NCBI GenBank assembly: GCA_045401155.1
Contig: CP174360.1
Span: 513,490-577,489, forward strand
Origin: Candidatus Minusculum obligatum
GTDB lineage: Bacteria; Patescibacteriota; Minisyncoccia; Phycocordibacterales; Phycocordibacteraceae
DNA: 64,000 nt
Reading direction: 5' to 3'
A program made the translations under genes and the position numbers. The notes beneath the pieces are model-generated. The model made no database searches. It saw only the letters and a program-made list of their open reading frames with translations, and was not told where the DNA came from. Shown piece after piece: positions 3,143 to 58,337 of this stretch (position 1 is its first letter; the number at the start of each line of letters is the position of its first letter).

Positions 3143-4813
3143 CTATTTTTCTTTTTCAAAATCAAGATACGCGAATGGGTCCACATCACCTCGAAGCACT
3201 TTCTTTCCTGGATTAAAAATATCTATCGGGTCCATTATTTTCTCTACTTTTTCAAAGAGATCCATCATCTCACTACCGAACATACGCTCTACATACGGAG
3301 TACGCACATATCCATCATTGTGCTCTCCTGAGATTGATCCATTGTATGAGAGCACTAACTCATATACACGCTCGCTCATCTCCTCAATAATTTGCCGAGC
3401 ATCTTTCCTCTTAGGATCCATAAGTGGAATGATATGGAAATTCCCATCCCCCACATGACCTGCAATTGTATACGTAAGGTCATACTCATTAAGAATTGCA
3501 TTTAACTTCGGAAGAAATTCCGTAAGTGTCTTTGGTGGCACCACAAAGTCTTCAATAAATGGCGCAGTTCGCTTCCCGCGCACCTTTTTGCGCAGCAAGT
3601 TAAAACTCTCTCGACGTACGGTCCAGTATTTTTGTGCAGCCTTTTTGTCTTTTGCAAAAAATGTTCCAATCTCTTTATTATCTTTTTTAATCTCCTCAAG
3701 AAGCTTCTTTGCTTTCTCTTGTACTTCTTTTTGATCATGAGACGTAAACTCAACCAAAAGCACAAGCTTGGGCACTCCTGATGTAAGAAGTCGTATAACC
3801 TCAGGAAGAAAAGAGATCCCTAGAGAAATAATGTTACTTCGCATCTGCACCGCAAACTCTGGAAAGTACTTTGTCGCAAGTTTAAATGTGTTGTCATCGT
3901 ATGACTCAAATGAATCTGGAGCGTGTTTTAAAATCTTTGGAATAAGAGATCCAAGATCATTTAGATCTTTTACAAAGAACACTGCCATCGAAGACTTTTC
4001 CTTTGGTGGAATAAGTGCAAACTTTATCTTCGTCACAATTCCCATGGTTCCCTGACTTCCAACTAAAAGCCGTGCAAGATTTAGAGAATGGGACCCATCT
4101 CCAATGTCCCAAAGCGCATACCCTGAAGAGTTCTTCTCTACTCCGGGCTTCTTCTTCTCAATAAGATCTTTATTCTCCGCTATAAGATTTCCAATCTCTC
4201 TATAGAGCGCACCCTCAAACGTATCTTCTTTTTTCTTTTGAGAGAGAAGGTCTCCTTCTAGATTTTTAAATGTATATACCTCTCCATCTGCAAGCACCAC
4301 CTCAAGCTCTTTTACGTATCGTGCCGTCTTCCCATATTTTAAATTCTTCTCACCCCCTGAATCATTTCCAACCATTCCTCCCACTGTACAAATTTCTCGA
4401 GATGCCGTGTATGAAGGGAGCTCAAGATTATGTTTTTTGGACTCTCTATCGAAATCTCTGAAATATACTCCCGGTTCTACGTACGCAAAATCATCCCCAA
4501 ATGCCAAAATCTTTGAAAAATGCGGAAGCATATCAACCACAATTGAATCAGTAAGCGGTCCACCACTCATATCAGTCCCTGCAGCTCGAGGTGTGAGATC
4601 TATGTCTCTACCCTTTTCTTTTTCTGCTTTTACAAAACGAACAAGCTTCTGCAGATCCTCTACATTTTTAGGAGCAACAACTACAGACGGCTTACGTACA
4701 AAAAGGCTCGCATCTCGACTATATTTTTCTAACGTTTCTTTTGAGTCATCAACATCTCCGTCGATGACATTTTTGAGTTCCTCGGCAAGAGTCATATGCC
4801 GAAATTGTATCAC
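3143..4813 (-). CDS. FAD-binding oxidoreductase (FAD-linked oxidase / GlcD-like, PCMH-type FAD domain)
   Basis: PSVVVAPKNVEDLQKLVRF and downstream G-rich FAD-binding motifs; 556 aa. Confidence 0.6.
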   Translation of the reverse strand: MIQFRHMTLAEELKNVIDGDVDDSKETLEKYSRDASLFVRKPSVVVAPKNVEDLQKLVRFVKAEKEKGRDIDLTPRAAGTDMSGGPLTDSIVVDMLPHFSKILAFGDDFAYVEPGVYFRDFDRESKKHNLELPSYTASREICTVGGMVGNDSGGEKNLKYGKTARYVKELEVVLADGEVYTFKNLEGDLLSQKKKEDTFEGALYREIGNLIAENKDLIEKKKPGVEKNSSGYALWDIGDGSHSLNLARLLVGSQGTMGIVTKIKFALIPPKEKSSMAVFFVKDLNDLGSLIPKILKHAPDSFESYDDNTFKLATKYFPEFAVQMRSNIISLGISFLPEVIRLLTSGVPKLVLLVEFTSHDQKEVQEKAKKLLEEIKKDNKEIGTFFAKDKKAAQKYWTVRRESFNLLRKKVRGKRTAPFIEDFVVPPKTLTEFLPKLNAILNEYDLTYTIAGHVGDGNFHIIPLMDPKRKDARQIIEEMSERVYELVLSYNGSISGEHNDGYVRTPYVERMFGSEMMDLFEKVEKIMDPIDIFNPGKKVLRGDVDPFAYLDFEKEK

Positions 4814-16407: not shown

Positions 16408-17015
16408 ACCTTTAGTACCATAATAGCACCTTTTGCCTCACTTACATCCTTCTTTTTAAGGGTCAGTTTGTCTGTTGGCTTTTCAGCTCCCTCCTTGCAG
16501 AAGGTCTTGAGCGCATCCTTATCCCCCATTCCTTCATAGTGCATTGGAATGATGACATTGGCCTCAAGCTTTGTTGCAAGCTTATGTGCTTTATCTGCAT
16601 CTAGCACACCAGCCCCTCCAATTGGCACAAAAAGAATATCAACTTCATCGAGCGCCTCCCTAGCATCTGCAGGAAGATTCTCATCACTTAGTGCTCCAAG
16701 AAACACAAGTGTCATACCCTCAAGCTCAACCACATACATAGTATTAAGTCCTTCAGGACCTCCATGCTCACTCTTTGTCTGGTATCCACGAATCGCAACA
16801 CCATTCTTCTCATATGCTCCAGGACCTGCGATAACAAAAGAATCATCTTTTGCGCCATTAAAATCAGAATGAATCTTTGAGATAAGGGTAATATCCGCAC
16901 CAAACTTAACTGCAGGAAGCTTTGAATCCTTACTTGGTGGATCAAATACAAGTGTCGTGTCACCAAAACTAACCTTAAAACATTGCCCTCCGTGATGCGT
17001 AATAACCATAGTCAA
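16404..17015 (-). CDS. MBL-fold metallo-hydrolase
   Basis: Metallo-beta-lactamase-like His/Asp spacing (ITHHGGQCF..., IPMHYEG). Confidence 0.55.
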   Translation of the reverse strand: MTMVITHHGGQCFKVSFGDTTLVFDPPSKDSKLPAVKFGADITLISKIHSDFNGAKDDSFVIAGPGAYEKNGVAIRGYQTKSEHGGPEGLNTMYVVELEGMTLVFLGALSDENLPADAREALDEVDILFVPIGGAGVLDADKAHKLATKLEANVIIPMHYEGMGDKDALKTFCKEGAEKPTDKLTLKKKDVSEAKGAIMVLKV

Positions 17016-17149
17016 AACAGTATATCACCTTGTCCAAAATAGACAATATTTCCTTTTGTTAAGCCATATTCTATATATTTTGCAAGACCACATTTTAAAA
17101 CTATTGACAAGTTTTATATTTGTAGTACTATCCTTTCATCCCTAGAGGA

Positions 17150-17745
17150 GAGTTATGGGCTGCTCGTAATCACGAGCCTTGAAAGTGCCGACGCGACTGT
17201 CGGTGGAAAATTCTCTCAAACAATGATCCTTCAAATCCCACGAGGTTTGAACATGACCAATCGTCACATCCGGGGTTCGACCGTCAATGGTCCGGCTTAT
17301 GAAAATACGAGCTCGACCCTGGACATCGATTCCGCGCCGACGTGCGGCTGGCGGTCGGCCTGATCGGCCGGCCAGGCCGGGAGGCAGTCACCGTGTGACG
17401 TGACTCCCGCCTGAGACCAGAGCAACCACCGCGATACAAGCTGCGCGCTTGGGGAGGTACTCATGTTTGTATTTCGACTTATGTCCCCGTACGCTACGGC
17501 GTGCGGGTAACATAGCCCTCTAAAATTTCGGGCAATACCCTGGTCCGGGCAGGACCACTTGAGATCGAGAAAGAGGCGTATAAGATTAATATCGCGTGCT
17601 GTGCACCGATCACTTTATCAGAATACACGCCTACCTAGGGAGCGTACTCCCAAGATCTCTATGACTTGCGGCTGTGGAGCTTGCGCGCAAATGCGCTCTC
17701 TACAGCCCGGTCCCAACCGTCTCTCTTGAGACGGTTTTTCTTTAC
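17150..17745 (+). ncRNA. Unclassified GC-rich structured-RNA candidate (~570-600 nt; strand tentative)
   Basis: 850-nt gap with no ORF of 60 aa or more. An abrupt GC-rich core (17150-17720) in an AT-rich genome, multiple internal hairpins (e.g. GCUCGU-aauc-ACGAGC; GGGAG..GUCAC-cgu-GUGAC..CUCCC), an upstream TTGACA box (17104) and a hairpin+T-run at 17716-17745. No CR-I or CR-V RNase P motifs in canonical order, no tRNA-like end and no clean SRP domain IV were found. Confidence 0.5.
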
Positions 17746-17869
17746 ATTTCACACATTTACCGCTATATTCTCCCTACTTCAGTACGGAGTTTTTTATTAC
17801 CTGTATGTCGGCTAACACTGCACTCTTAACGCAGTACCGAATACACAACTCCCGAACAAGAAAATACAT

Positions 17870-18949
17870 ATGTTTGGAAACAATAAAGAAGTGGAACATC
17901 CACTTCATCATTTGGTTGAAGAGGCTCCAGAACCACCACAAGTTGGTGACACTATTGAGGGAGAGATCGTAGCGATCGATCGCGGACGTGTATACATTGA
18001 CCTGCCACCATTTGGTACAGGAATCATTTACGGACGTGAGTACCTTTCTGCTGCTGACATTCTTCGAAAGAGTAATATTGGAGATTCAATCTCAGCAAAA
18101 GTAGTAGACGCTTCAGGACTTGAGGGATACATCGAGCTATCTCTTAAGGAGGCGCGTCAGGCTGCTATCTGGGGAGAAGCTGAGCAGGCTATTGCAGCTG
18201 AGTCTATCTACACTCTAAACGTAGAGGATGCGAACAAGGGAGGACTTATCCTTCGTTGGCAAGGAATCGATGGATTCCTTCCAGCATCTCAACTTAAGAG
18301 CGAGCACTACCCACGTGTACAAGATGGAGATAAGGATGAGATTCTTGGAGAGCTTAAGAAGCTTATCGGAACACCTCTATCAGTACGTATCATCACTGCT
18401 GATCCTAAGGAAGGAAAACTTATCTTCACTGAGAAGTCTTCTGAAGAGGAGGAGGCAAAGACTGATGCCGTTGATAAGTACACTGTAGGTGATGTTGTAG
18501 AAGGAAAGATCACCGGAGGTGTTGAGTTTGGTCTCTTTGTAGAGATTGAACCAGGGCTTGAGGGACTTGTGCACATTTCAGAGATTGATTGGGCACTTGT
18601 TGAAGATCCTGCAGCACTATACCCAGTTGGAACTGAGGTTAAGGTGAAAGTTATCGATGTGAAGGATGGAAAGGTTTCTCTTTCTATCAAGGCACTTAAG
18701 GAGAATCCTTGGGATGCTGCAGCAAAGAACTACAAGAAGGATCAAGAGGTTACAGGAGTGGTTATTAAGTACAACAAGCATGGTGCACTTATCTCAATTG
18801 AGGAAGGTGTTGCAGGTCTTGTACATGTTTCAGAATTTGAGAGCATGACAGACCTTCGCGAGAAGCTAGAGCTTGGAAAGACATATCCATTCACTATTAC
18901 ACTCTTTGAACCAAAGGAGCAGCGCATGACCCTTGCATTCAAGGGATAA
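17870..18949 (+). CDS. rpsA: 30S ribosomal protein S1, short 4-domain form
   Basis: Four tandem S1/OB RNA-binding repeats (GDTIEGEIV..., GDVVEGKITG..., GTEVKVKVIDV..., VTGVVIKYNKHGALI...); 359 aa. Confidence 0.8.
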   Translation: MFGNNKEVEHPLHHLVEEAPEPPQVGDTIEGEIVAIDRGRVYIDLPPFGTGIIYGREYLSAADILRKSNIGDSISAKVVDASGLEGYIELSLKEARQAAIWGEAEQAIAAESIYTLNVEDANKGGLILRWQGIDGFLPASQLKSEHYPRVQDGDKDEILGELKKLIGTPLSVRIITADPKEGKLIFTEKSSEEEEAKTDAVDKYTVGDVVEGKITGGVEFGLFVEIEPGLEGLVHISEIDWALVEDPAALYPVGTEVKVKVIDVKDGKVSLSIKALKENPWDAAAKNYKKDQEVTGVVIKYNKHGALISIEEGVAGLVHVSEFESMTDLREKLELGKTYPFTITLFEPKEQRMTLAFKG

Positions 18950-44423: not shown

Positions 44424-44460
44424 AAACACTCGGGTTTTATCCCGAGTGTTTTCATTTTTT
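44424..44460. terminator. Palindromic rho-independent terminator immediately downstream of rnpB
   Basis: aaaacactcggg-ttttat-cccgagtgtttt, a 12-bp hairpin flanked by A-run and T-run. Confidence 0.7.
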
Positions 44461-44778
44461 ATATCGTGGCTATAAGCCGGATTCTGTACCATCTCTGGTG
44501 ACAATCATTTACCTTGCCATTTTGTTACCAAAATGATCTTTGCGGCACTCTCTAGAAACTAGAGTACGGCCTTGCACGCAGATAGGAATTTAGCCGTTTC
44601 ACCCATATGTTGCCATATGATTATCCCACAAGGGGTCCCTCTCATCTCTGATCAGGCGTCACTGCTCGCATCCCTAAGATTGCTCTCGACGGGCGTTACC
44701 CGCTACCCTGCTACTGAAAAATCAGTGCGTGTCCGGACTTTCCTCACATATTGCGCGATTGTCCACCACGACAAGCAC
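44460..44778 (-). ncRNA. rnpB: RNase P RNA (bacterial-type rnpB)
   Basis: Reverse complement contains GAGGAAAGUCCGGAC (CR-I/P4 5' strand), CAGGGUAGCGGGUAACGCCCGUC (P5-P5.1-P7 region, cf. CAGGGUGCCAGGUAACGCCUGG), AUGGGUGAAACGG (CR-II-like) and ACAGAAUCCGGCUUAU (CR-V/P4 3' strand). P1 pairs GUCGUGGU with AGCCACGAU. Length ~320 nt. Confidence 0.85.
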
Positions 44779-46866: not shown

Positions 46867-46977
46867 ATGTGGGATTTCATATCCGCAACCGACCTTCGCT
46901 TTGTCTTTGCAGTTGCTGGAGTTGTAATAGCTCTCGCACTTGCAGTTTGGAGCTCGATACAGAGCAAGCCAAGATAA
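46867..46977 (+). CDS. Small membrane peptide (36 aa)
   Basis: SD GACAGGAGGAGAG then ATG; MWDFISATDLRFVFAVAGVVIALALAVWSSIQSKPR; followed by a gcgcaccggtgcgc hairpin + TTTT terminator. It lies between two minus-strand genes. Confidence 0.4.
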   Translation: MWDFISATDLRFVFAVAGVVIALALAVWSSIQSKPR

Positions 46978-54088: not shown

Positions 54089-55246
54089 ATGGATGCTCAA
54101 GCAAAAGGTATTACAATCACCAACTTTTTTGGTGCACTTCACTATTTCCTTACGGTCTATATCACAGCGCCGTATCTTGCCCAGTTCGTAAGTGAAGCGA
54201 TGGTGGGACTTATTTTCTCTGCAGGAGCACTTCTCTCTCTTGCAGGATTTCTTCTGATTCCAAAACTACTAAAGCTCACGACACTTAAACGGCTTGCCCA
54301 GATCATAAGCTTAGTACAACTTGGCGTGCTTGTGGGGCTTGCGGTGCAACCACCTCTTCCCTTGATACTGATATTTGTTGCAATGCTTACTGCACTTCCA
54401 GCACTTATTGGATATGCATTTGATATCTTTCTTGAACAAGCCACAAAAGATGAAGGCAGTACCGGAAATATACGGGGACTTTTTATTACCGTTGGAAATG
54501 TTGCGCTCGTGATATCACCTCTCGCAATTGGATATATCCTTGGAGACACGAATCTTTATGAGCGCATCTTTGCACTTGCCGCTGCAACACTTGTGCCCTT
54601 TACTCTACTTCTTGCAACGCTTATAAAAAACCCAAAACCAAAAGACGTGGGAGCACTGTCTCTTAGGAGCACACTAAAGTGCCTAATGCATTCAAAAGAT
54701 GTAATGCTTGGAGCTGCTGCACATTTCACCATGCTCCTATTCTTTTCTTGGGTATCAATTTATATCCCCCTGTACCTACACACCGAACTTGGTATCGCAT
54801 GGGAAAGTCTCGGGTGGGTATTTAGCATCATGCTTCTTCCATATGTGTTCCTTGAGTACCCTATTGGTGTTATCGCAGATAGGTGGTTTGGAGAGCGTGA
54901 GCTTATGATGCTTGGATTTGGCGTTATGGGAATAACCATGGCGGCTATAAGCTTTATTACATCTCCACTTGTTTCCCTTTTCCTTATTGTGGTACTTGTT
55001 GGAACCCGTGTAGGAGGCGCCATAACTGAAATTACGACAGAGACGTATTTCTTTAAACATGTTGATGGAAACGACATAAATTCAATTAGTCTCTTTAGAA
55101 CACTTCGTCCACTTGGTGCACTTATCGGACCACTTATTGGAAGCTTGGGACTTCTTTTTGTGCCTCTTCAAAGCCTCTTTATGATTCTTGGAGGAATTTG
55201 CCTCATTGGTATTCCGATTGCCTTTTTCCTAAGAGACACGCGCTAG
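54089..55246 (+). CDS. MFS transporter
   Basis: 12 predicted TM helices in a 6+6 arrangement. Confidence 0.6.
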   Translation: MDAQAKGITITNFFGALHYFLTVYITAPYLAQFVSEAMVGLIFSAGALLSLAGFLLIPKLLKLTTLKRLAQIISLVQLGVLVGLAVQPPLPLILIFVAMLTALPALIGYAFDIFLEQATKDEGSTGNIRGLFITVGNVALVISPLAIGYILGDTNLYERIFALAAATLVPFTLLLATLIKNPKPKDVGALSLRSTLKCLMHSKDVMLGAAAHFTMLLFFSWVSIYIPLYLHTELGIAWESLGWVFSIMLLPYVFLEYPIGVIADRWFGERELMMLGFGVMGITMAAISFITSPLVSLFLIVVLVGTRVGGAITEITTETYFFKHVDGNDINSISLFRTLRPLGALIGPLIGSLGLLFVPLQSLFMILGGICLIGIPIAFFLRDTR

Positions 55247-56025
55247 GTAGCAAGTGCCAAACCACGACCCTTTTTTACAACCATCCCTTCTTTTTTTAAT
55301 TTTTCTACTTGAGCCATCATGCGCTCCTTTTCATATGAGAGGTCTTTGATCTTCCCACCTTTAGAAAGAACCCTTACGATCGCGCCACGTATTTCTCTAT
55401 CTGAACCCTTAAACTTTGATTGCTTTACGTAATGCTTACTCTTGCTGTTTACCTGAACACCTTGCTGCTTAAGATATGAACCATGGTCCATAAGCGCCCA
55501 ATACCACTCTCTGGGATTATTTTTATCAAGCGTTTCTTCTACAATCTTTAAAATCTCTTTGTCTGTCACGTCTTTTTTGTCTTCAAAAAAATAGTGCGTA
55601 TACACCGTACGTATATTTGTCTCTATACACGGAATCGCCTTATTAAAAGCAAACGCTTGTATTGCAGCTTCAGTATACGGACCAATACCAGAAATTTTTT
55701 GTAAATCATTTTTTGGAAAAATTCCTTTATATTCTTTTTCTATATACTTAGCACCCTCATGCAGTAATTTCGCACGGCGATTGTACCCAAGACCCTGCCA
55801 CGTTATAAGCACGTCTTTAAGTGGCGCCTTTGCGAGAGCGTTAATGGTTGGAAACTTTTTTAAAAACTCTTTATATTTTGGAATAACTCGAGATACCTGT
55901 GTCTGCTGAAGCATAACTTCCGATACCCATATCCTATATGGGTTTTTTGTCCTCCTCCACGGCAAATCTCTTCCTTCTTTTTTATAAAAAGAATAGATTT
56001 TCTTTTTAAACGTCTTCTGCTCCAT
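55243..56025 (-). CDS. MutY-family A/G-specific adenine glycosylase-like HhH-GPD protein lacking the 4Fe-4S cysteine motif
   Basis: LPWRRTKNPYRIWVSEVMLQQTQV (MutY N-terminal signature) and an HhH-GPD core; no C-x6-C-x2-C-x5-C cluster. Start ambiguous (M1 at 56064 or M14 at 56025), overlapping pspC. Confidence 0.6.
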   Translation of the reverse strand: MEQKTFKKKIYSFYKKEGRDLPWRRTKNPYRIWVSEVMLQQTQVSRVIPKYKEFLKKFPTINALAKAPLKDVLITWQGLGYNRRAKLLHEGAKYIEKEYKGIFPKNDLQKISGIGPYTEAAIQAFAFNKAIPCIETNIRTVYTHYFFEDKKDVTDKEILKIVEETLDKNNPREWYWALMDHGSYLKQQGVQVNSKSKHYVKQSKFKGSDREIRGAIVRVLSKGGKIKDLSYEKERMMAQVEKLKKEGMVVKKGRGLALAT

Positions 56026-56212
56026 CAGCCTCTGGCACAATAAACAAACCAAGAACGTAGGCAATCATTCCTGGGAAAATACCTGTAAACAAAGTCATTA
56101 CGACATACCCAAATCGAAACACTACCGGATCAATGTCTACATACTCCCCAATACCACCAAAAATTCCTGCGAACACCTTATTCTTTTTACTTCTTCGTAG
56201 ATACTTTTTCAT
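56006..56212 (-). CDS. PspC-domain protein
   Basis: KVFAGIFGGIGEYVDIDPVVFRFGYVV PspC-domain signature followed by a TM helix. Confidence 0.7.
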   Translation of the reverse strand: MKKYLRRSKKNKVFAGIFGGIGEYVDIDPVVFRFGYVVMTLFTGIFPGMIAYVLGLFIVPEADGAEDV

Positions 56213-56235
56213 TGCAGGTACTATAGCACAAACAA

Positions 56236-56481
56236 AAAGCCGCTGAGAAACTCAGCGGCAACGAGTGGATCCAGGGACCTTACTTTCCTGAAGTAGGTAC
56301 CAGCTCGTGAACTGCGCATCGACACGAGATACTAGGCGCTCTGGGACGAGGGTTCTATCAGGACATTCAAGTTATCCGACCCCGAAAGGTCAGAACGAGA
56401 TAGTCGCAACAAGATACCCCACGATCACCGTTAAGGAACGTTCCCAATCGGGTCCCCGTGGATTTGGGTGCCCCGGATCCA
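56236..56481 (-). ncRNA. Unclassified GC-rich structured-RNA candidate (~245 nt) with paired 5'/3' ends and terminator
   Basis: GC-rich ORF-free block between pspC and the nth-like gene. On the minus strand there is a TTGACA-17-TATTTT promoter (56488-56515). The RNA starts near GGAUCCGGGGCACCC, which pairs with the 3' GGUCCCUGGAUCC, and contains internal hairpins (GGAACGUUCC; GACCU-UUCG-GGGUC). A terminator gccgctgag-ttt-ctcagcggc + U-run lies at 56239-56259. Confidence 0.5.
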
Positions 56482-56511
56482 AAAAGAAAATACTCAATTT
56501 CTAAAGTGCTG

Positions 56512-57180
56512 TCAACCTTTGTGCCACCCAACCGCCGCTTCAGGATATATCTTTATGAGCGGATCCTCTGAGGTATCGTACCTCCTTGCAGGAGCAATGT
56601 TTCTCCCATACTCAATAGCAAGATACGTAAAATTAAACCAATCTTTTTTAGGAATCACTTCCATCAAATCTTTTTCTATTTTTTCTGGAGTCGTATGATC
56701 TGTGAGATCAAATCGTATTGCAAAGCGCTTCACATGCGTATCTACTGCAATCCCCTCTACAATCCCATATGCATTCCCCAATACAACATTTGCGGTCTTC
56801 CTCCCCACTCCAGGGATCGTAATCATTTCCTCAATAGTTTTTGGAATTTTTCCATCAAAATCCTCCTTTACAACCTTTGCAGCGGCAAGAATATTTTTTG
56901 CTTTGTTTTTATAAAACCCTGTTGATTTAATATCTTGCTCAAACTCTTTAAGATCTGCTCGAACGTAATCATCTAATTTCTTATACTTCTTAAAAAGCTT
57001 CTCGGTAACCTTATTTACCATCTTGTCTGTACATTGTGCAGAGAGCGCAACCGCAACCACAAGTTCCCAGTTATTAGAATACTTTAAAATCATCCCTGCC
57101 TCAGGAAAAATGCTTTTTAGTTTTTTAATTAGGTTTTTTGCTCGAACCTTTCTCTCCTCCATAGTATTACTGTAGTTCAT
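56512..57180 (-). CDS. Endonuclease III-like HhH-GPD glycosylase lacking the 4Fe-4S cysteine motif
   Basis: HhH motif (ITIPGVGRKTANVVL), catalytic Lys/Asp region (VDTHVKR); C-terminus has no Cys cluster. Confidence 0.65.
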   Translation of the reverse strand: MNYSNTMEERKVRAKNLIKKLKSIFPEAGMILKYSNNWELVVAVALSAQCTDKMVNKVTEKLFKKYKKLDDYVRADLKEFEQDIKSTGFYKNKAKNILAAAKVVKEDFDGKIPKTIEEMITIPGVGRKTANVVLGNAYGIVEGIAVDTHVKRFAIRFDLTDHTTPEKIEKDLMEVIPKKDWFNFTYLAIEYGRNIAPARRYDTSEDPLIKIYPEAAVGWHKG

Positions 57181-57631
57181 CTAGATCCTTCAAAACCTCC
57201 TCTGCGTGCAGCTTTGGCTTTACATTTTCATACACTTTCATAATCTTTCCTTCTGGATTAATTAAGAAAGAATTTCTAAAAACTCCTTGATATACTCTTC
57301 CCATAAACTTCTTTTCACCCCAAACCTTGTAGGCATCAATTATTTTTCTATCCTCATCTACTAAAAGTGGGAACGAAAGATCAAACTTTTCTGCAAACTT
57401 CTTATGACTCTCTAATGAATCCGGAGATACTCCAAGAACCACTGTATTTCTTTTTTCAAAATCTTTCTTATACTCTTCAAAAACCTGCCCCTCTACTGTA
57501 CACCCGGGAGTATTATCTTTTGGGTAAAAATATAAAAGCACCCAACCACCTCTGTAATCTTCTAGACTGTGCTCCTTTTCGTTTTGGTCTATTGCCGTAA
57601 ACTTTGGCGCTTTTTTATGCAGCAGATCCAT
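57167..57631 (-). CDS. Thiol peroxidase / peroxiredoxin (Bcp-like, AhpC/TSA family)
   Basis: Start at MDLLHKKAPKF. FTAIDQNEKEHSL...PKDNTPGCTVEGQ peroxidatic Cys motif. Confidence 0.8.
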   Translation of the reverse strand: MDLLHKKAPKFTAIDQNEKEHSLEDYRGGWVLLYFYPKDNTPGCTVEGQVFEEYKKDFEKRNTVVLGVSPDSLESHKKFAEKFDLSFPLLVDEDRKIIDAYKVWGEKKFMGRVYQGVFRNSFLINPEGKIMKVYENVKPKLHAEEVLKDLDELQ

Positions 57632-58337
57632 TTTCTTGTTTTTCTTTTGCCTCCTCAAGCCTCTTTTCTTCTTTTTTAACAACTTTTTCTGCAACCTTGC
57701 GCTTTGTATAAAGGTTCATAAGCGCAAAGATAAGCATGCTTGAAAATACAATTCCTAGAACATTTACAAGATATAGCGTAAATGCACCTGAAATAACTTT
57801 GATATCAAGATTTGCAAGCCCAACTCCAATAGTTGCAAGCGGTGGAATAAGCGCCACCGAAACTGCAATCCCCGGAAGCGTAGCTGAGAGTGCTGGCTGC
57901 GCTAGTGAATACGAAACAGCAAGGCCTGCAACGATTGCAACACCGACATAAATAAGAGATGGCTCTGTGCGAAGCAGAATCTCATCTGTAAGCGGCGCAA
58001 ATGGAGAAAATATCAGAGTTGCAAGTGCTGCTGTAGCAACGGCCGCGGCAGACGCTTGCAAAAACGTCATGATCGAACGAGCAATAAGCGGACCATCAGA
58101 CATAATGATAGATAGCGAAATAGAAAGAATTGGAAACAGAATTGGAGCCAAAAGCATTGATCCAATTACAACTGCTGGGTTATTTGCAACAAGACCAAGT
58201 GTGGCCATAAGCACTGAAAGTACAATGAAAAAGAAGAAATCAAAGTCTCCTGTGCTCTCTCGAATCAAAAGATCAACCGCTTTGGTCTTGTCTGAATCGT
58301 TAATCGTCCGCAGGTGTGCAATAAAGTTAAATACCAT
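57615..58337 (-). CDS. DUF389-family polytopic membrane protein
   Basis: Repeated hydrophobic segments with the DUF389/TIGR00341-like pattern (LLAPILFPIL...PLATIGVGLAN). Confidence 0.45.
   Translation of the reverse strand: MVFNFIAHLRTINDSDKTKAVDLLIRESTGDFDFFFFIVLSVLMATLGLVANNPAVVIGSMLLAPILFPILSISLSIIMSDGPLIARSIMTFLQASAAAVATAALATLIFSPFAPLTDEILLRTEPSLIYVGVAIVAGLAVSYSLAQPALSATLPGIAVSVALIPPLATIGVGLANLDIKVISGAFTLYLVNVLGIVFSSMLIFALMNLYTKRKVAEKVVKKEEKRLEEAKEKQENGSAA

Follow-up and report, generated by a model that had tools for sequence, protein, structure and literature searches.

The block at positions 56213-56511 of the window (by which we mean the whole 64-kb stretch of DNA analysed here) lies between two minus-strand genes, nth and pspC, and raises the question of whether it holds the gene of a structured RNA and, if so, whether that RNA belongs to a known family. 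The initial annotation had described a GC-rich block with independent transcription signals and a structured minus-strand RNA whose termini pair, and all of these elements were found where it had placed them; GC content rises to 0.54-0.55 in the block, against ~0.43 across the window. On balance, and judging from sequence comparison, we lean towards a stand-alone gene for a structured RNA of ~215 nt (~250 nt with its terminator hairpin) that would act in trans and would fall outside the known families.

Transcription signals and predicted fold in the window

The TTGACA-17-TATTTT promoter that had been read on the minus strand is present (56515-56487), and the stop codon of nth, TGA (56514-56512), lies inside its -35 box. 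Transcription is predicted to start at G56480, 7 nt after the -10 box, which is the first G of the helix that closes the RNA. The terminator with its U-run is likewise in place ahead of pspC, and past it, outside the RNA, lies an extended -10 box that would serve pspC (Table 1). A plus-strand frame had been taken for the only ORF in the block; it exists, but it is not the sole one, as a minus-strand ORF and a second plus-strand ORF also overlap the block, and none of the window's ORFs over the block has a Pfam match.

The pairing of the two ends held up in part: the first 10 nt of the RNA form a clean helix (P1) with the last 10, but the pairing does not extend over the full 13-15 nt that had been quoted. 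Both the minimum-energy fold and the consensus fold of three sequences of the same form (type A, defined below) open from P1 into a multibranch domain of four or five hairpins. The type A interior is represented by three or four sequences only and its fold comes mostly from energy prediction; within that fold P1 alone appears well supported. In a candidate long-range helix inside P1 (P2), the three type A sequences differ by a single double change and by several G-U/A-U exchanges, which lends it slight support. The small hairpin GGGAACGUUCC contains pairs that go from G-U to G-C in locus L083, and its counterpart in L088 reads GGAA-CGCG-UUCC, and the UUCG-capped arm is shorter in L001 and different in L083. 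The best-conserved type A block is the CUCGUG...CACGAG hairpin, invariant in the window, L001 and L083; at the aligned place L090, a type B locus, carries CUGGUG-UGGAAUGUGCAGAU-CACCAG, a compensatory change relative to the type A hairpin. A UUGUUG-like motif, read by eye and thus a candidate, recurs in most type A and type B versions.

Table 1. Features of the nth-pspC interval and of the flanking genes, in window coordinates
Feature	Positions	Strand	Basis or remark
nth	56512-57180	minus	HhH-GPD, E 5e-25
-35 box TTGACA of the RNA promoter	56510-56515	minus	consensus scan
-10 box TATTTT, 17 nt past the -35 box	56487-56492	minus	consensus scan
RNA body, type A, 214 nt	56267-56480	minus	fold; homologues in L001 and L083
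P1, 5' strand GGAUCCGGGG	56471-56480	minus	pairs with 56267-56276
Candidate P2 (long-range helix within P1), 5' strand GGGGACC	56451-56457	minus	three-sequence type A consensus fold
Small hairpin GGGAACGUUCC	56435-56445	minus	energy and consensus fold
UUGUUG, predicted single-stranded	56407-56412	minus	read from sequences
UUCG-tetraloop hairpin UCUGACCU-UUCG-GGGUCGGA, variable arm	56375-56394	minus	minimum-energy fold
Hairpin CUCGUG-UCGAUGCGCAGUU-CACGAG, 13 nt between strands	56304-56328	minus	consensus fold
Candidate P2, 3' strand GGUACCU	56295-56301	minus	three-sequence type A consensus fold
P1, 3' strand CCCUGGAUCC	56267-56276	minus	pairs with 56471-56480
Intrinsic terminator GCCGCUGAG-UUU-CUCAGCGGC and U-run	56229-56259	minus	consensus scan; all related loci
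pspC extended -10 box TGCTATAGT	56220-56228	minus	scan; second promoter-like site
pspC, 68 aa, PspC domain	56006-56212	minus	PspC, E 1e-17
ORF	56307-56504	plus	named in the initial annotation
ORF, 54 aa	56367-56531	minus	overlaps the block
ORF	56468-56698	plus	overlaps the block

Taken by itself the window is weak evidence, because the promoter scan stays at shuffle level (2 sites against 1.7 expected) and the z-score of the fold is modest (-2.87 against shuffles; -2.83 for the opposite strand, so that the strands do not differ). The significance comes from comparison, since promoter spacing, end-closing stem and terminator are found again, with compensatory changes, in 12 distinct related loci.

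Distribution and conserved signals in related genomes

Syntenic loci came from scans of genomes and metagenomes for relatives of nth and from contigs that encode close homologues of it. JGI samples such as 3300010234 and 3300032373 are among the sources of the contigs, and L089 and L176 both come from 3300010234. The nth protein of the window is identical to one of 'Patescibacteria group bacterium UBA2103', and the arrangement nth-[~250-320 nt]-pspC-MutY-like gene was found in 12 distinct lineages of Patescibacteria, the window included, so that the locus is conserved in relatives, a point that the initial annotation had left to comparison. The RNAs at these loci fall into two groups: type A comprises the window, L001 (= L096), L083 and the shorter L088, and type B comprises L002, L084 (= L085-87, L097), L176, L094 (= L095), L090, L081 (= L082), L089 and L098. 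With nhmmer, homologues of the window RNA were recovered in L001 (E 5e-16) and L083.

The RNA is absent from five relatives (L091, L092/L093, L177/L178, L179 and L011), in which the gap between nth and pspC measures 18-50 nt. In L003, labelled Wolfebacteria, the site holds only a 74-nt hairpin (4680-4753); this version has the promoter, a 10-bp closing stem, a CUUGAA motif after the stem and the terminator, with an interior of ~50 nt, and is either a deletion remnant or a minimal type B. Loss in five relatives and decay to 74 nt in L003 show that the RNA is dispensable, and the gene is confined to one marine lineage of Patescibacteria.

TTGAC(A/G/T), with the stop codon of nth inside it, is retained in all 13 RNA-bearing loci; in the relatives without the RNA, nth ends in TAG or TAA and the -35 box is missing. 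Because the stop codon lies within the -35 box, the final codons of nth change as well when the RNA is gained or lost. Every related locus has a TAT(C/A/T)TT-like -10 hexamer at a spacing of 17-18 nt, across a spacer of unconserved sequence, and 3-8 nt (6-8 in the full-length versions) separate the -10 box from the start of the helix, which opens with GG (G in L002). A terminator follows in every related locus after a short linker, its stem different from locus to locus and always self-complementary. Judged by these conserved promoter and terminator signals, the RNA is an independent transcription unit.

A promoter, a complex fold, a terminator and genes on the same strand are also the layout of a transcriptional riboswitch, and the region could instead be a cis-acting leader (riboswitch or attenuator) whose terminator controls read-through into pspC and the MutY-like gene; in L090, moreover, one strand has two perfect alternative partners. 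Against this, the pspC promoter lies past the terminator, and its box, TGnTATACT, is kept with and without the RNA (RNA-less: L091, L092, L177 and L011), and therefore pspC is independent of the upstream unit. The type of RNA does not track the pspC leader sequence, inspection of the window and L001 by eye found no segment complementary to the 5' half of the terminator that could act as an antiterminator, and no riboswitch family was matched at E<=10 in the window and eight related loci. We rejected a transcriptional riboswitch on the extended -10 promoter that pspC retains in RNA-less loci, and consider a leader of any such type very unlikely because pspC has its own promoter and P1, at 10-17 perfect base pairs, is too long, too perfect and too stable to switch.

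Genes recurring in the neighbourhood across loci encode VKOR, DUF389, AhpC, DinB, Nth, PspC, the MutY-like glycosylase and an MFS transporter. In the window, the surroundings of the RNA (55243-57694) are made up of oxidative-damage genes, namely a Bcp/AhpC peroxiredoxin, Nth and a second HhH-GPD (MutY-like) glycosylase; the cluster in relatives additionally has a DinB polymerase and MsrB, and the gene content of the interval from DUF389 to nth varies among close lineages.

Public gene calls in L084, L086 and L087 stretch pspC, or place an ORF of 156-160 aa, over the RNA (~2663-3161 in L084/L086 coordinates; 2382-2852 in L087). They arise because this version happens to have no in-frame stops there, and they are probably an annotation artefact: L176, with an RNA 93% identical to that of L084, has stops that break the open frames of L084. 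No reading frame is open in all versions, and we rejected a coding region on the lack of Pfam matches to the ORFs and of a frame common to the versions.

Covariation of the end-closing stem

P1 is a perfect helix of 10-17 bp that joins the 5' and 3' ends; it is always kept, and almost every lineage has its own sequence for it. Counted over 10 distinct sequences, pairing holds in 97.5% of cells and both sides have changed in 11 of the 12 pairs, counts that are inflated by helix boundaries set by eye from the pairing itself. The observed values were reached by none of 500 shuffles, and sliding the partner by one column reduces pairing to ~60%. P1 contains 12 G-U wobbles, which on the opposite strand would give A-C mismatches; the transcribed strand is thereby fixed, and selection acts on an RNA read in the direction from nth to pspC.

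These same repeats, being terminal and inverted, could suggest that there is no RNA function at all and that the block is a decaying small mobile element or neutral spacer DNA, a reading that also fits the varying presence of the block in close relatives and the 74-nt version in L003 taken as a deletion remnant. The repeats, however, change in compensation and through G-U pairs that are sensible only in an RNA of one strand, the promoter and terminator are conserved, and the RNA shared by L081 and L089 is better conserved than its flanks (see below). The locus is moreover single-copy in the 64-kb window, and nhmmer searches, run from single sequences as well as from profiles, turned up no further copy in the window or the related loci (0.96 Mb in total). 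Covariation of the terminal repeats through G-U pairs, together with the single copy, makes a mobile-element remnant unlikely, and we regard the absence of any RNA function as quite improbable. A miniature inverted-repeat transposable element was rejected on the single copy and on terminal repeats that covary rather than stay conserved. An origin in a mobile element or phage was likewise rejected on the single copy and the lack of a viral, phage or plasmid counterpart: pattern scans of viral contigs (two) returned zero matches, blastn found none in phage records, and plasmids gave one 28-nt chance match.

Two forms of the RNA interior

The interiors occur in two forms that differ in sequence to the point of being unalignable to each other. 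Profiles of type A and type B each fail to find the other type, and local alignments of A against B stay at shuffle level, except for the window and L001 against L090. The idea that type A is an inverted type B was rejected, as nhmmer on both strands found nothing.

For type B, whose strands were located by hand and whose MAFFT seed alignment is poor in the middle, the interior comprises helices P2a (GCUUC/GAAGC) and P2b (GAUGUR/YRCAUC), a P4 hairpin (GAAC/GUUC) and a pseudoknot that pairs the P2a-P2b bulge with the P4 loop (CGGAG:CUCCG, CAGGG:CCCUG, UGGUG:CACCA, UAGGG:CCCUG). Over these helices and the pseudoknot 97.9% of cells are paired, with two-sided changes in 12 of 20 pairs, values that the choice of boundaries inflates in the same way as for P1; the pseudoknot itself is 100% paired, with two-sided changes in three of its five pairs. 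The layout is common to both types: P1, an internal loop, and P2 around several hairpins. L090 seems to combine the two as a mosaic, and types A and B are probably one plastic family.

Exchange of the RNA body between lineages

Pairs of related loci were compared by fractional DNA identity in the upstream flank, the RNA body and the downstream flank. For L001 (type A) and L002 (type B) the three values are 0.93, 0.41 and 0.94, and for L088 and L089 they are 0.87, 0.30 and 0.85, so that in both pairs unrelated bodies (30-41% identity) sit inside flanks that are 85-94% identical; in both, identity falls at the -35 box and recovers at the terminator. For L081 and L089 the RNA body (0.92) is better conserved than the coding flanks (0.81 upstream, 0.79 downstream), and for L084 and L176 the values are 0.91, 0.93 and 0.93. 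Types A and B are interspersed on the tree of the flanking proteins.

The RNA body has thus been exchanged between lineages as a unit, in a modular mode of evolution: either bodies moved between lineages, or old alleles persisted during homogenisation of the flanks by recombination. Shared RNA bodies are under purifying selection.

The pattern invites a further reading as a conflict or interaction system, in which a fixed promoter-terminator 'socket' would express interchangeable structured-RNA 'cassettes', their diversity kept by frequency-dependent selection; the bodies would be exchanged or be ancient alleles, and phage defence, anti-defence or interaction with the episymbiont's host cell might be the role. 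Sharp replacement limited to the RNA body in two independent pairs, the scatter of types over the flanking-protein tree, an RNA 92% identical between L081 and L089 in flanks only ~80% identical, the mosaic-like L090 and the patchy presence of the RNA among close relatives would all be expected of such a system. Ordinary homologous recombination in a recombining population could nevertheless give the same pattern; the viral contigs, phage records and plasmids held no counterpart, and within 2-4 kb none of the loci has a gene for a reverse transcriptase, nuclease, integrase or transposase, or a known defence gene. This reading is drawn from the evolutionary pattern alone, and we consider it unlikely.

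Searches for a known RNA family

At the gathering threshold, Rfam 15 returned nothing from the whole 64-kb window but RNase P RNA and eight tRNAs. At E<=10, the region 56100-56650 (551 nt) gave one chance snoRNA match, outside the RNA, and the intergenic region of the eight related loci gave no match. The 6S, SRP and tmRNA models that the initial annotation had named for comparison were thus unmatched at E<=10 in the window and in the eight related loci, and its reading of a novel small RNA is borne out by the lack of any Rfam assignment. It had also been right to doubt an SRP identity, as we read no AGCA/GGAA-type domain IV motif in the RNA, and SRP RNA was rejected on the unmatched covariance models; as regards the universality of an SRP-type gene, L091, L092, L177, L179 and L011 lack the RNA at this locus. 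ARAGORN found no tmRNA in the region or the window, and tmRNA was rejected with both ARAGORN and Rfam empty.

The 6S-like organisation proposed at the outset fared less well. A central bubble flanked by long stems had been anticipated, and the predicted folds are instead multibranched, with a pseudoknot in type B; 6S RNA was rejected on the covariance model (RF00013) and on the rod-with-bubble fold. The analogy is further unsupported because the gene is missing from close relatives and swapped wholesale between genomes with ~94% identical flanks, loss and swapping that would be unexpected of housekeeping genes such as those of 6S or SRP RNA. A 6S-type RNA that has diverged strongly and binds the RNA polymerase holoenzyme by open-promoter mimicry would account for the paired termini, and P1, the asymmetric internal loop and P2 loosely resemble a closing stem, a central bubble and an internal stem; to our knowledge the annotation of Patescibacteria genomes does not usually include a 6S gene, and the slot could be open. 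The apical 150 nt, however, would form a domain of several hairpins, with a pseudoknot in type B, where 6S RNA has a terminal stem-loop, and with the gene missing in close relatives and swapped between near-identical genomes we think this reading highly improbable.

We infer that the RNA is not 6S RNA, SRP RNA, tmRNA, RNase P RNA or a riboswitch. A search for a trans target within the 64 kb gave complementary matches of 9-14 nt only, which is chance level, and a literature search returned nothing relevant on 6S or structured RNAs of Patescibacteria.

Other features of the window and of related loci

The RNase P RNA of the window (44457-44774, minus strand) is of bacterial type A and reaches only 106 bits, where the gathering score is 100; several of its helices come out short or missing in the alignment, and reduced RNase P RNAs have been reported from CPR genomes. 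It may be the first unclassified RNA implied by the initial annotation, which called the present block the second. A second GC-rich ORF-free block (17615-17745, plus strand) contains two hairpins, one of them small (GGGAGCGUACUCCC) and one long (GGCUGUGGAGC...GCUCUCUACAGCC), followed in our list by a terminator, with a minimum free energy of -52.3 kcal/mol (z = -4.97), only chance-level Rfam matches and no ORF of at least 70 aa in 17015-17870; a further small RNA without a class, or else a structured 3' UTR, may lie here. A small ORF of ~36 aa (46868-46977, plus strand) has AGGAGG as its ribosome-binding site, codes for a hydrophobic core and carries a terminator of its own; the gap in which it lies had initially resembled one more RNA candidate. 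L100 has a more distantly related nth, downstream of which, at ~2290-2420, a TTGACG-17-TATACA promoter leads into a GC-rich segment that starts with GGGCAACAAAAGGGG, possibly an unrelated small RNA.

Proposed function and comparison with known systems

Patescibacteria genomes are ~0.6 Mb in size and keep very little non-coding DNA, so that a 300-bp locus with a promoter, a terminator, a covarying stem and, in type B, a pseudoknot likely has some role. For the stand-alone RNA that we favour, we propose that a sigma-70-type promoter overlapping the nth stop codon would drive transcription from the first G of the end-closing helix, and that an intrinsic terminator would end it after a short linker, with pspC using its own promoter. 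The interior would consist of several hairpins inside a second long-range helix, with a pseudoknot in type B. The pairing of the termini may serve mainly as a shield against exonucleases, as it does in further stable RNAs of bacteria, and the RNA, stable and recognised by its shape, would then act in trans; purely speculatively, service as a protein partner or decoy seems the most likely such role. On the sequence evidence the RNA represents a new family, narrow in range and unusual in its pattern of allele replacement. We know of no regulatory RNA characterised so far in Patescibacteria (CPR).

Among known systems, 6S RNA (ssrS, RF00013) is alike in being stand-alone, dispensable and ~200 nt long, with ends that pair and open into an asymmetric internal loop. 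It is apically one irregular stem-loop, whereas the RNA described here is predicted to carry a 150-nt multi-hairpin domain, pseudoknotted in type B, has no covariance-model match, is limited to one small lineage, is lost in sister lineages and has its body exchanged as a unit. The Y RNAs (YrlA, bound by the Ro protein Rsr) share a stem of the two ends that bears a multi-branched module, as well as stress or damage genes nearby. Y RNA genes normally adjoin rsr, whereas here no rsr (TROVE-domain) gene lies within 2-4 kb at any locus, inspection finds no tRNA-like T-arm, the interior is larger and Rfam gives no match; a Y RNA was rejected on the TROVE and Rfam results. Retron msr-msd RNAs are similar in length (~150-250 nt), in the inverted-repeat pairing of their ends, in strong variation between close strains and in patchy distribution. 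Their defining feature is an adjacent reverse transcriptase gene, and a retron was rejected because the Pfam families of the neighbours include no reverse transcriptase domain at any locus; a long msd-type hairpin was not identified here either.

The orphan GC-rich intergenic motifs, such as the raiA motif and the marine IMES RNAs, are likewise GC-rich ORF-free blocks in AT-rich genomes, with covariation-supported helices and a pseudoknot. The RNA described here has no Rfam 15 match to those families, is far narrower in distribution and, unlike them, occurs in two non-alignable forms at a single orthologous site. If ordinary recombination alone accounts for the replacement of the RNA body, the locus is one more narrow-range orphan small RNA. 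No structured-RNA gene known to us from bacteria behaves in the manner of a hypervariable surface or immunity locus with no associated protein gene nearby, and selection for diversity, if true, would be a new behaviour for a structured RNA gene.
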